Source of the DNA: a virus
Taxonomy: Duplodnaviria; Heunggongvirae; Uroviricota; Caudoviricetes
Direction: 5' to 3' (one strand)
Length of the DNA: 44,188 nt
IMG/VR virus record: IMGVR_UViG_2541047701_000003
Numbering within the stretch: the stretch's first letter is position 1; each line of letters begins with the position of its first letter. The translations under genes and the position numbers were made by a program. Positions 8,710 to 11,848 of this stretch are shown here, piece after piece. The notes beneath the pieces are model-generated. The model was not told the origin of the DNA. It saw nothing but the letters and a program-made list of their open reading frames with translations, and did no database searches.

Positions 8710-9129
8710 TTACTCCGGTGGGGGATTATCTTTAAGCCTGCCTCTCAAATATTTTTCTACATACTCATCGATTTCTTTTAGCCGGACTTCAAATAGCTCA
8801 ATCATTCGTTGTTGTTCTGAGCCCGGTAGCTGGTTAAACAACTCAAGAAGTTTTCGTTGGGATTCATTTAACCACAATTCAGAAGATTCCTGTTCTCCAA
8901 ATAGGAGCTCAGGAGGAGATATGCCAAGTGCCTTTCCCAATACGACAGCGTCATGCACTCCAACATTTCTGCTGCCCGCCTCATAGTTACCTATACGCGA
9001 TTGCGTCCATCCGCAGATTTCAGCAAGTTTTCCTTGAGATAAACCAAGCTTCTGCCTGCGCTCTTTAAGACGCATTGCAATTTTGTCATTGAGCCTACTA
9101 GCGGCAATTTTTTCGTTTTCTTTTTCCAT
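8710..9129 (-). CDS. Prophage repressor, XRE-family HTH (cI/RacR-like)
   Basis: 139 aa; HTH LGLSQGKLAEICGWTQSRIGNYEAG; divergent from Cro-like gene across an operator-containing intergenic region. Confidence 0.7.
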   Translation of the reverse strand: MEKENEKIAASRLNDKIAMRLKERRQKLGLSQGKLAEICGWTQSRIGNYEAGSRNVGVHDAVVLGKALGISPPELLFGEQESSELWLNESQRKLLELFNQLPGSEQQRMIELFEVRLKEIDEYVEKYLRGRLKDNPPPE

Positions 9130-9225: not shown

Positions 9226-9468
9226 ATGAACAAAATTTCAACATATCGAAAACAGCTTGGGCTGTCTCAAAGACAACTTGCTGTTCAGTTAGGGTGGATA
9301 CAAAGCCGACTGGCAAATTACGAAGCAAATTTTCGTACCCCTGGACTAGAGGAGTGCAGAAAAATTGTTTCTACCCTTAATCGGCTTGGCGCTCATTGTG
9401 GACTTGACGATGTATTCCCCCCAGACGGTAAGCATAGCGAAAACAGCATAGGAGCGGTTGATTCATGA
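9226..9468 (+). CDS. Cro-like HTH regulator (YdaS-like)
   Basis: 80 aa; HTH LGLSQRQLAVQLGWIQSRLANYEA; GGAGG SD; first gene rightward of operator region. Confidence 0.6.
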   Translation: MNKISTYRKQLGLSQRQLAVQLGWIQSRLANYEANFRTPGLEECRKIVSTLNRLGAHCGLDDVFPPDGKHSENSIGAVDS

Positions 9469-9887
9469 AAATCAGGCATGAGCACATCGAATCAGTGTTG
9501 TTAGCCCTGGCAGCCGAAAAAGGGCAGGCGTGGGTCGCTAACGCAATTACTGAAGAATATCTGCGCCAGGGGGGCGGCGAATTGCCCCTTGTACCAGGCA
9601 AGGACTGGAACAATCAGCAGAATATCTATCACCGTTGGTTGAAAGGTGAAACGAAAGCGCAAAGGGAAAAAATTCAGAAACTGATCCCTGCGGTTCTGGC
9701 AATTCTTCCGCGCGAGCTGCGTCACCGACTCTGCATCTTCGATACCCTGGAACGCCGTGCATTACTGGCGGCGCAGGAAGCGTTGAGTACGGCAATTGAT
9801 GCGCATGATGATGCAGTCCAGGCCGTTTACCGGAAAGCACATTTCAGCGGTGGTGGGTCGCCCGGCGATTCTGTCGTAGTGCATTGA
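9465..9887 (+). CDS. YdaT-like protein (early regulator/toxin family of Rac)
   Basis: 140 aa, ATGA-coupled to Cro-like gene; size and position match ydaT of Rac. Confidence 0.5.
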   Translation: MKIRHEHIESVLLALAAEKGQAWVANAITEEYLRQGGGELPLVPGKDWNNQQNIYHRWLKGETKAQREKIQKLIPAVLAILPRELRHRLCIFDTLERRALLAAQEALSTAIDAHDDAVQAVYRKAHFSGGGSPGDSVVVH

Positions 9888-9932
9888 TTGAAATTAATCG
9901 TGCCGGATTGTTTTGTTCGGTATCAGTTAAAT

Positions 9933-10350
9933 GTAACGCTGCGAGCGTTACAAGGTGAAAACAAATGGCTTCAAACTGGATAAAGCTCGAGGTTATTACG
10001 CCGGATAAGCCGGAAATATTCAGGCTTGCTGAGATTCTGAATATTGATCCAGATGCCGCATTAGGGAAGGTTATTCGCTTCTGGGCATGGGCGGATCAAC
10101 AAATGATAGACGGTAATGCAGATTGTAACGCTCGCGGCGTTACAAAAAGTGCAATAGATCGCATCACTTTTATGGCTGGTTTTGCTGATGCGTTAATTCA
10201 GGTTGGATGGCTGGTCGAAAATGACGGTGGGCTTTCTCTACCTAACTTTGAACGTCATAACGGGAAAAGCTCTAAAAAACGGGCGGTTACAAACGAGCGA
10301 GTTACAAAAATACGCGAACTGAAACGAAAAGGTAACGCTGCCAGCGTTAC
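9933..10350. repeat. Iteron-like palindromes, probable origin of replication within and upstream of the initiator gene
   Basis: GTAACGCT-n3-AGCGTTAC at 9933..9951, 10125..10143, 10332..10350 plus GTTACAAA direct repeats at 10286 and 10301. Confidence 0.45.
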
Positions 10351-11095
10351 ACAAACGGATCAAAAAGCGTTACCAGAGGAAGAGGAAGAGGAAGATATAA
10401 ATACTGATCTAACCCATCCCAAACCCTTCCCTTCCGGAAGGGAGTTCCGGGATTTTGTGGCTGGAGTGCTTGAGGGGAGATTATCTGGCGGTACTGCAGC
10501 GGAATTTTGTAATTCTGCGGTGGTTGCGTTGCAGGCTGCTGGCCTGGATGTCTGTCGTGAGTATCCGGTGCCAGAGCGTGGTGACGGCTGCGGAGGGCGG
10601 ATTGATATCGTCGTGACTGACAGGAACGGTGTCCGGTGTGGGATCGAGCTTGACCGAAATTCTCCGCGACAGAAATCACTGCTCAAAATCAGTGCTGTTG
10701 AAACCGGGATATGTGTCTTGCGGCGCAGTGATATCGCAAGGCACACCGAGCAGGGAATTCTGGTTATCGGTGGGGCTGTTCGCCAGAAAAAATTTGACCC
10801 GTTGTCTGTTGATCTGCCCGACTGGTTGCCAGAAACACTCTGGCATGAGTGGGTTCAGTTCAGGCAGGCATTGCGAAAACCGATTCGAACGGAGCAGGGC
10901 GCTAACGGGGCGATACGGGAGCTGGAAAAATTCCGCCAGCAGGGTTTTACCCCTGAGCAGGTGATTAGACACAGCATCGCCAATGAATACCAGGGCTTGT
11001 TCGCGCCGAAAGGCGTTCGGCCTGAGACGTTACTCCGACAGGTTAACACCGTCTCGTTTCCAGACAGTGCTATCCCGCCAGGCTTCAGGGGGTAA
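9965..11095 (+). CDS. Phage replication initiator (lambda O-like role)
   Basis: 376 aa; contains iterons in its 5' part, acidic EEEEEED linker, followed by DnaC-like loader. Confidence 0.6.
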   Translation: MASNWIKLEVITPDKPEIFRLAEILNIDPDAALGKVIRFWAWADQQMIDGNADCNARGVTKSAIDRITFMAGFADALIQVGWLVENDGGLSLPNFERHNGKSSKKRAVTNERVTKIRELKRKGNAASVTQTDQKALPEEEEEEDINTDLTHPKPFPSGREFRDFVAGVLEGRLSGGTAAEFCNSAVVALQAAGLDVCREYPVPERGDGCGGRIDIVVTDRNGVRCGIELDRNSPRQKSLLKISAVETGICVLRRSDIARHTEQGILVIGGAVRQKKFDPLSVDLPDWLPETLWHEWVQFRQALRKPIRTEQGANGAIRELEKFRQQGFTPEQVIRHSIANEYQGLFAPKGVRPETLLRQVNTVSFPDSAIPPGFRG

Positions 11096-11101
11096 CAGAC
11101 C

Positions 11102-11848
11102 ATGAAAAATATTGCGACAGGAGGCGTTCTGGAGCGTATCCGCAGACTGGCCCCACCACATGTAACCGCCCCATTCAGAACGGTTGCGGAGTGGCGCGAG
11201 TGGCAACTTGCTGAAGGCCAGAAACGTAGCGAGGAGATCAACCGCCTGAATCGTCAGTTGCGGGTGGAAAAAATTCTGAATCGCTCAGGCATCCAGCCGT
11301 TGCACCGTAAATGCTCGTTTGCGAATTACCAGGTGCAGAACGACGGCCAGCGATACGCGTTAAGCCAGGCGAAATCCATCGCCGATGAACTGATGACCGG
11401 GTGTACAAATTTTGCGTTCAGCGGAAAACCTGGTACCGGGAAGAATCACTTAGCGGCAGCTATCGGGAATCGCCTGCTGAAAGACGGTCAGACAGTGATT
11501 GTGGTTACCGTGGCTGATGTTATGAGCGCCCTGCACGCCAGCTATGACGACGGGCAGTCAGGCGAAAAATTTTTGCGGGAGCTGTGCGAAGTGGATCTGC
11601 TGGTTCTTGATGAAATTGGCATTCAGCGCGAGACGAAAAACGAGCAGGTGGTGCTGCATCAGATTGTTGATCGCCGGACAGCGTCGATGCGCAGCGTGGG
11701 GATGCTGACAAACCTGAACTATGAGGCCATGAAAACATTGCTCGGCGAGCGGATTATGGATCGCATGACCATGAACGGCGGGCGATGGGTGAATTTTAAC
11801 TGGGAGAGCTGGCGTCCGAATGTTGGTCAGCCAGGAATTGCGAAGTAA
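11102..11848 (+). CDS. DnaC/IstB-like AAA+ helicase loader
   Basis: 248 aa; Walker [16 protein letters not shown] and Walker B LLVLDEIG. Confidence 0.75.

Follow-up and report, generated by a model that had tools for sequence, protein, structure and literature searches.

Conserved palindromes and half-sites in the initiator gene of a Rac-like prophage replication module form a putative in-gene origin

The Caudoviricetes sequence IMGVR_UViG_2541047701_000003 from IMG/VR, whose entire 44,188 nucleotides (nt) we refer to as the window, carries the Rac-like lambdoid immunity and replication region of a prophage, in which the gene for a 376-amino-acid (aa) initiator, recognized by PHROG and PDB profile matches, occupies the place of ydaU or lambda O. 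Within this gene, and directly upstream of it, lie three copies of a palindrome, accompanied by single half-sites of the same sequence, a polypurine tract, and a short A/T-rich stretch. These sites are real and are constrained at the DNA level, they co-vary with one another and with the initiator protein, and they are arranged in an architecture that is conserved among distant relatives. The features of the element, in window coordinates, are given here, with conservation referring to the 56 homologous loci introduced below.

9932..9952, unstranded: upstream palindrome TGTAACGCT-GCG-AGCGTTACA, in the spacer between ydaT and the initiator gene, followed by the Shine-Dalgarno sequence and the ATG at 9965
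9965..11095, plus strand: initiator gene, 376 aa
10113..10119, unstranded: degenerate left half-site GTAATGC, 12 nt before site 1, within an enteric-specific 4-codon insertion (from the half-site map and alignments)
10124..10144, unstranded: site 1 palindrome TGTAACGC-TCGCG-GCGTTACA, coding for C-N-A-R-G-V-T and kept at homologous codons in most of the 56 loci
10284-10290 and 10299-10305, unstranded: degenerate right-type half-sites cGGTTACaaa and GAGTTACaaa, 15 nt apart
10321..10327, unstranded: degenerate left half-site GAAACGA, 11 nt before site 2; relatives have an exact GTAACGC at the homologous place
10332..10350, unstranded: site 2 palindrome GTAACGCT-GCC-AGCGTTAC, in the middle of the half-site array
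10367..10373, unstranded: terminal right half-site GCGTTAC, 1 base before the purine tract; varies with arm class in relatives
10375..10395, plus strand: polypurine tract AGAGGAAGAGGAAGAGGAAGA, 21 nt, GAGGAA three times; candidate unwinding or single-stranded DNA (ssDNA)-loading element
10396..10412, unstranded: short A/T-rich stretch TATAAATACTGATCTAA, 17 nt, after the purine tract

The pattern GTAACGC-N5-GCGTTAC, with at most one mismatch allowed, matches the window at three positions only (9933-9951, 10125-10143, and 10332-10350), and none of 100 dinucleotide-preserving shuffles contained a match (0 expected by chance versus 3 seen). A repeat finder recovered the same copies as a direct family (D1) and as inverted pairs (I1 to I3), bearing out the three palindromic copies that had been reported in an earlier note on this DNA. 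That note had described them as one 19-bp palindrome of 8-3-8 form, repeated three times inside the initiator gene. Copies 1 and 3 are indeed perfect 8-3-8 palindromes (GTAACGCT-N3-AGCGTTAC), but copy 2 (10125-10143) reads GTAACGCT-CGC-GGCGTTAC and is palindromic only as 7-5-7; and whereas copies 2 and 3 (sites 1 and 2 above) and the half-sites are within the gene, copy 1 is outside it, 14 to 32 nt 5' of the ATG, where it adjoins the Shine-Dalgarno sequence AAGGTGA (9952-9958). The additional GTTACAAA repeats of the same note are present at 10139, 10286, and 10301, with GTTACACAAA at 10346, and all are right-arm half-sites; a further exact half-site is that at 10367-10373. The portion of the gene from 9965 to 10412 holds two palindromes and at least four half-sites.

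Half-sites form direct arrays with a period of 11 to 12 bp, left-type units running up to the palindrome center and right-type units following it (>>> <<<), as in the maps of locus L008 (356>' 367> 379> 391> 403< 426<) and locus L043 (328> 340< 351< 362<); one half-site sequence is used both inverted and direct, at helical phasing. The enteric-specific insertion at 10113-10124 (DGNAD-CNA...) is a partly decayed additional left half-site, whose counterpart in the phage Rac record and in several relatives is exactly GTAACGC, and the insertion is therefore a DNA repeat unit added inside a protein loop. GATC (Dam) sites are located at 10358-10361, between the second in-gene palindrome and the terminal half-site, and at 10406-10409, in the A/T-rich stretch; the first of these is retained in many enteric homologues.

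For a comparative scan limited to one genome per species, we gathered 79 loci with relatives of the initiator N-terminal domain (N-domain) at 34 to 97% identity, and a non-redundant set of 56 homologous loci with 34 to 72% protein identity. These relatives come from Enterobacterales, Pseudomonas, Burkholderiales, Planctomycetota, Verrucomicrobiota (including Akkermansia), and others. Within the gene, the same palindrome recurs in two conserved places, at offsets of +136 to +160 and +323 to +412, with conserved arms and a free center of five bases, and the two sites are separated by 189 to 264 bp (median, 212 bp). Both in-gene sites are present in 37 of the 56 loci, a single one in 9, and neither in 10. 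Matches to the palindrome are concentrated in the interval from -120 to +520 (88 matches, 2.5 per kb), compared with 2 matches in 141 kb of flanking sequence, and only Enterobacterales-type loci have a third copy, upstream at -32 to -44.

Variation over shorter distances was assessed with alleles from an IMG/VR scan, all of which are 95 to 100% identical to the window and hence uninformative on deep conservation but usable for within-species variability. Among 58 unique, near-identical Escherichia coli alleles, 4 of 49 arm positions are variable, compared with 104 of 491 positions elsewhere (P = 0.04). In the 5-nt centers of the palindromes (9940-9944, 10132-10136, and 10339-10343), 11 of 15 positions are variable in these alleles, perhaps because constraint is relaxed there or because hairpin loops are mutational hotspots.

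Departures from the common arrangement were seen among the relatives. Members of a Verrucomicrobiota clade (L045, L048, L049, L052, L053, L055, L058, L066, and L070) have neither intact palindromes nor a purine tract and are enriched in CGTTAC half-sites, at three to four copies, and their origin may be rearranged or decayed. Locus L076 has two GTCACGC-type palindromes at +820 and +853, off the usual positions and well 3' of a short N-domain open reading frame (ORF) of 116 aa, and its initiator gene may be disrupted.

Across loci, site 1 codes for G-N-A-x-x-V-T with its synonymous positions frozen. The glycine codon is GGT in 41 of 53 cases, versus 50 of 223 at other conserved glycines (P = 1e-13); AAC appears in 40 of 40; GTT in 40 of 50, versus 56 of 193 elsewhere (P = 8e-11); and GCT in 31 of 42, versus 64 of 253 elsewhere (P = 2e-9). 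Throughout the rest of the N-domain, codon choice is scrambled. Site 2 occurs in relatives in reading frames 0, 1, and 2; the frame-2 cases all belong to the class with GTCAC arms, and by our reading a TAA stop in the third frame restricts the GTAAC class to the other two. In phages epsilon15 and phiPSA1, site 1 has moved to +65 and the GNAxxVT peptide is missing; moreover, the residues encoded by site 1 form a low-confidence loop between helices 2 and 3 of the AlphaFold2 model presented below, with a predicted local distance difference test (pLDDT) score of <50 at aa 51 to 56. The peptide, then, probably owes its conservation to the DNA signal. Comparative data thus place the constraint on the DNA and not on the protein, and they mark the palindromes as clearly functional elements at the DNA level that are tied to the initiator.

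Arm variants are symmetric, affecting both arms, and are concerted at both sites of one genome. GTCACGC/GCGTGAC arms are present at both sites in L061, L068, L074, L075, and L081 and at one site in L042, L056, and L072; GTTGCGC/GCGCAAC arms occur in L043, CTAACGC/GCGTTAG in L062, and GTTACGC/GCGTAAC in L039; and epsilon15 (L165) and phiPSA1 (L167) have GTCCGC/GCGGAC arms, with further sites at +344/+365 from the ATG besides that at +65. When site-1 sequences were taken purely by protein alignment, 84.6% of cells were paired, compared with 25 to 45% when the partner was slid, and double-sided changes numbered 22, compared with 6.4 in shuffles (0/500). The lone terminal half-site that precedes the purine tract also follows the arm class of its genome, reading GCGTGACC, GCGCAACC, or GCGGACC.

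On the protein side, residue 113, which lies in a basic helix (aa 103 to 119), varies with the third base of the arm: it is V in 46 of 47 GTAAC loci, K or Q in 8 of 8 GTCAC loci, and M in GTTAC and GTTGC loci, and the GTCAC set with K/Q includes L042, whose N-domain otherwise resembles that of the GTAAC-class locus L034. As a comparison uncontrolled for shared ancestry, this link is suggestive and not established. Residue 109 (codons for aa 109 and 113 at 10289-10291 and 10301-10303) also co-varies with half-site base 3.

The last right half-site is separated by a single base from the polypurine tract, an association that extends to relatives. Runs of at least 14 purines on the coding strand start between +330 and +470 in 39 of the 56 loci, at a density of 5 per kb versus 0.12 per kb elsewhere in the same loci, and 31 of the 39 come directly after a half-site. 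Enteric alleles, including that of the window, contain GAGGAA three times and most relatives contain (AGAGA)n; the (AGAGA)n tract CCAGAGAAGAGAAGAGAAGAGAAGA is identical in epsilon15, Xanthomonas phage CP2, phiPSA1, and Planctomycetota despite their differing half-sites. The GAGAAG unit starts in frame 0 in 12 loci, in frame 1 in 13, and in frame 2 in 1. The acidic linker that the earlier note had placed after the repeats exists, as EEEEEED (aa 138 to 144), but it is encoded by the purine tract at 10375-10395, which relatives translate as (P)EKRREEK or REEKRR(EE), and it is the translation of a polypurine tract conserved at the DNA level, not an independent protein feature. The A/T-rich stretch after the tract is also kept in epsilon15 and phiPSA1; AT skew is +0.5 to +0.58 across 10250-10400, with a GC content of 0.42 to 0.47. 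It is conceivable, though less likely than not, that the polypurine mirror repeat serves for sequence-specific strand opening or ssDNA loading, as a functional counterpart of the DnaA-trio, and that a very large family of prophage initiators in many bacterial phyla has it in common, in which case GNAxxVT and EEEEEE/EKRREEK would both be by-products of origin DNA signals.

The initiator itself comprises the N-domain (aa 1 to ~125), a basic/acidic linker, an inserted middle domain (aa ~150 to 272), and a DnaT-like C-terminal domain (C-domain; aa ~275 to 376). Its PHROG matches are phrog_2509 ("replication initiation protein"; E = 1e-85, N-domain), phrog_6451, and phrog_678 ("O-like"), the last confined to the C-terminal part. 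The C-domain (aa 284 to 376) matches PDB entries 2ru8 (E = 1.5e-4) and 9zbt (E = 5.9e-4) as well as phrog_6451 ("primosomal protein"; E = 2.5e-35), and relatives carry PF17948. The N-domain has no Pfam match even at an E value of 10, which includes the lambda O N-domain family Phage_rep_O (E up to 10); nor does it match Pfam Phage_rep_org_N or any NCBIfam model, and PADLOC returned no match. An AlphaFold2 model of aa 1 to 125, built from a 115-sequence alignment (pLDDT, 79.6; predicted template modeling score, 0.70), contains helices at residues 16 to 25, 29 to 46, 61 to 68, and 73 to 80, a beta-hairpin at 84 to 91, and the basic helix at 103 to 119. Searched with Foldseek against BFVD, which holds predicted structures only, the model matches a "Replisome organizer" N-domain (E = 2.7e-5; TM score, 0.75), the organizer N-domain of Streptococcus phage Abc2 (E = 7.9e-4), and, weakly, DUF1376 proteins (E = 0.09).

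The N-domain family is large, with 6798 clusters at 50% identity (E up to 1e-3; 4287 at 1e-10). The N-domain module is present in 786 of 5426 complete E. coli genomes, and the domain occurs in isolated phages that include epsilon15, SPN1S, TL-2011b, Xanthomonas CP2, PAN70, and phiPSA1, as well as in Ralstonia phages. Its surroundings in the window are as follows.

8710-9129, minus strand: repressor, at the start of the module
9226-9468: Cro-like helix-turn-helix protein
9465-9887: YdaT/CII-like protein
9965..10339, plus strand: N-domain of the initiator, predicted to be origin-binding (AlphaFold2 model, Foldseek against BFVD)
11102..11848, plus strand: DnaC-like helicase loader (ydaV), the presumed partner of the initiator C-domain
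After the DnaC-like loader: DUF1627 protein, the last gene listed in the module

In relatives, the gene after the initiator always encodes a helicase or loader (DnaC-like, DnaB-like, or lambda-P-like). The genes before it vary among relatives that keep the sites, being small ORFs in BUCT554 and a Klebsiella phage, a methyltransferase in epsilon15, and a repressor in phiPSA1. The initiator is the sole constant companion of the sites.

The middle domain, of ~120 aa, is inserted in frame in the linker (10412-10780), right after the A/T-rich stretch. Most alleles lack it, and the full three-domain allele is present in 38 of 5426 E. coli genomes; PGAP annotates such alleles as two partial pseudogenes. 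It corresponds to PHROG 1347 (unknown function), with a weak match to REase_MTES_1575 (E = 0.18) and no Pfam family or informative match; by eye, its motif RIDIVV...GIELD resembles PD-(D/E)xK. At the boundary of this domain, inside the ORF, a plus-strand hairpin (TTCCGGAAGGGAGTTCCGGGA then TTTTGTGG, 10432-10452) is terminator-like by a consensus scan, whose matches of this kind are no more numerous than chance.

We think that the palindromes and half-sites are probably the initiator-binding sites of a replication origin, comparable to the origin within gene O of lambda or to oriL of SPP1. The comparative evidence supports a layout of the lambda/SPP1 type, in which the sites, followed by a purine-rich and A/T-rich stretch, occupy the portion of the initiator gene that codes for the linker, with a helicase-loader gene downstream; that evidence is strong, and the origin interpretation that rests on it is plausible. 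The lambdoid ori-within-O arrangement proposed in the earlier note is retained here with respect to its layout, but not as three equivalent iterons, and the core would instead be the cluster at 10284-10412, comprising the array centered on the second in-gene palindrome, the terminal half-site, the polypurine tract, and the A/T-rich stretch. The N-domain of the initiator encoded by the same gene would bind palindromes and half-sites as duplex DNA, with dimers on the palindromes and single subunits on the flanking half-sites. Initiator bound at the core would open or destabilize the purine/AT segment, and the host DnaB helicase would be recruited, along with the DnaC-like loader YdaV, by way of the DnaT-like C-domain. 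Site 1, ~200 bp upstream, and the enteric copy near the ribosome-binding site (RBS) would be auxiliary, contributing to looping or cooperative assembly and to autoregulation; copy 1, at 9932..9952, is a candidate for an autoregulatory or auxiliary site. The binding partner, strand opening, loader recruitment, origin activity, and autoregulation are all elements that we infer.

Several points tell against this origin reading. The palindromes are spaced ~200 bp apart, unlike the tightly packed iterons of lambda, and the A/T-rich stretch is short, in a region whose GC content is only moderately low (0.42 to 0.47). Ten of the 56 loci have no recognizable sites, and a de novo palindrome search of these 10 gave no clear substitute motif. 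Symmetric covariation fits a hairpin or cruciform equally well. The link between residue 113 and arm base 3 meets exceptions in protein-only data: a protein-only proxy agrees for the non-A classes, the exceptions being a clade with N55 and G109/Q113, and it also showed an alignment artifact. When two models were searched with Foldseek against PDB, no solved structure was significant (E > 0.29); the top matches mostly contain winged helices, and we do not assign a winged-helix fold to the N-domain because these matches are non-significant. Finally, our literature search found no binding or replication experiments on any member of the family.

The sites might, alternatively, be initiator-binding operators only, serving autorepression, titration, or handcuffing, with the origin elsewhere in the prophage. 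In iteron plasmids, Rep dimers on inverted repeats serve as operators, copy 1 adjoins the Shine-Dalgarno sequence and start codon, and enteric relatives likewise have upstream copies, at -32 to -44. The upstream copy is, however, lineage-specific, whereas the two most conserved sites are in coding sequence, 150 to 400 bp downstream of any promoter, and the pairing of the terminal half-site with the polypurine/AT segment (31 of 39 tracts) has no obvious role in repression, leaving the operator-only explanation unlikely.

We judge equally unlikely an explanation in which the palindromes act as hairpins in single strands, either as mRNA stem-loops governing translation or stability of the initiator or as ssDNA hairpins or cruciforms for priming or primosome assembly with the DnaT-like domain. 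Each palindrome can fold into a stable stem of 8 to 9 bp with a loop of 3 to 5 nt (-7.6 to -9.4 kcal/mol as DNA; z ~ -4), changes are compensatory on both sides, loops are hypervariable among close alleles (11 of 15 positions), and the C-domain is DnaT-like. Against this, the stem sequence is near-invariant across phyla, without drift; the two sites of one genome always have the same arms; unpaired half-sites, which are unable to form hairpins, co-vary with the arms; single mismatches in the site lists are, by eye, mostly non-wobble; and the stems have no Rfam family match and no U-tract after them. Two related candidates were rejected: an intrinsic terminator, since no copy is followed by a T-run on the plus strand and the single minus-strand match is within chance; and a known structured RNA, for which Rfam gave nothing relevant.

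A still less probable explanation is that another protein (the CII-like YdaT, the repressor or Cro, or a host protein) binds the sites and regulates the early-right operon, not replication. Copy 1 is just 3' of ydaT, and YdaT is reported to bind DNA and to regulate in cis within Rac (PMC11014345). Yet relatives that retain the sites have different upstream neighbors; Planctomycetota and Enterobacterales share no host factor, and a factor of that kind would leave unexplained why arm classes switch together with the initiator sequence. That the palindromes arose by chance from coding a GNAxxVT peptide, with no DNA function, can be practically dismissed, for although sites 1 and 2 of the window both code for N-A-x-x-V-T in the same frame, the synonymous positions are frozen, site 2 is in other frames elsewhere, copy 1 is noncoding, and the peptide vanishes when the site relocates, as in epsilon15.

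Read as an origin bound by its own initiator, the element can be set beside known systems as follows.

(i) Lambda. In lambda, each iteron is an inverted repeat of 18 bp on which two O proteins bind, beside a high-AT region (PMC6022878), and the contrast drawn by the earlier note, of palindromic rather than direct-repeat iterons, fails on this account and also because the element here has direct half-site arrays too. As in lambda ori-in-O (and in phi80, 82, P22 gene 18, and Stx phages), the predicted origin is in the linker-coding region of the initiator gene, between N-terminal DNA-binding and C-terminal loader-binding domains; the repeats have inverted symmetry and are bound by a dimer (here a predicted mode of binding); a purine-rich, A/T-rich unwinding stretch (again predicted here) is to the right, with the helicase-loader gene next; and phages exchange the N-domain and its repeats as one unit (PMC6022878). 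The differences from lambda, in which four to six iterons abut, are that the sites here form three clusters over ~420 bp, the core combines a single palindrome with direct half-sites, the N-domain gives no Pfam match to its lambda O counterpart, one site is at the RBS, and the polypurine tract is conserved in sequence across phyla.

(ii) SPP1. The predicted fold of the N-domain matches the N-domains of phage replisome organizers (the BFVD matches above, E = 2.7e-5 and 7.9e-4). G38P of Bacillus phage SPP1, a replisome organizer, is an origin-binding protein with binding sites (oriL) in its own gene 38. The present system differs in having no match to Pfam Phage_rep_org_N, in its repeats, which in SPP1 are AB boxes, in its DnaT-like C-domain, and in having no second, distant origin copy known.

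(iii) Iteron plasmids. With the plasmid Reps (RepE, pi, TrfA, and RepA), the element shares the use of one recognition sequence as inverted units (dimers, operator) and direct units (monomers, origin) and an adjoining unwinding element (a candidate here), one strand of which the initiator may bind. It differs in its protein family, its phage setting, and the location of its sites within coding sequence.

(iv) Rac oriJ. The Rac prophage is reported to carry an active origin, oriJ (PMC3945230), and the K-12 module (racR-ydaS-ydaT-ydaU-ydaV-ydaW) is alike. Only the C-terminal 102 aa of K-12 ydaU align with the initiator of the window, at 88% identity; the ydaU N-domain is instead DUF1376, and its in-gene repeats are AACAGATGTTCAA. 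In K-12 MG1655 (L163, 4472-4583), AACAGATGTTCAA is present as several direct copies and one inverted copy, followed by an A-rich stretch, and these repeats are probably the core of the genetically known oriJ. Since the same C-domain is joined to a different N-domain and different repeats, the N-domain and repeats would swap together as a specificity module. The window would therefore hold a different origin-specificity allele, to which results on oriJ do not transfer, and we rejected the identification of the element with the known oriJ given that K-12 ydaU has another N-domain and other repeats.

(v) oriC. As with a DnaA box and the DnaA-trio, a duplex site adjoins a short-period, strand-asymmetric repeat, for which opening and ssDNA binding are predicted by general analogy. 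Here, however, the period is 5 to 6 nt, not 3, the tract is all purine, and the initiator is not an AAA+ protein.

In the literature on oriJ and Rac, ydaU, the motif, DnaT-like initiators, and epsilon15, we found no description of these sites. The concept of an origin within its initiator gene is familiar, but there appears to be no description of this initiator family, of the sequence of its sites and their dispersal in three clusters, of their conservation within coding sequence across phyla, or of the invariant polypurine element. The N-domain family, which has no Pfam model and thousands of metagenomic clusters, is usually annotated as "hypothetical protein" or "primosomal protein I," and the combination of in-gene repeats with an in-frame inserted domain is a warning for annotation, since pipelines then report a pseudogene. 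Residue 113 and arm base 3 offer a testable protein-DNA recognition pair with natural specificity variants, and the conserved polypurine element beside an initiator site is a candidate opening site. The locus would also be a case of overlapping codes, in which origin signals dictate seemingly conserved peptide motifs and a charged, low-complexity linker. If the origin reading is true, the origin and its recognition sequence would be defined for one of the commonest prophage replication modules.

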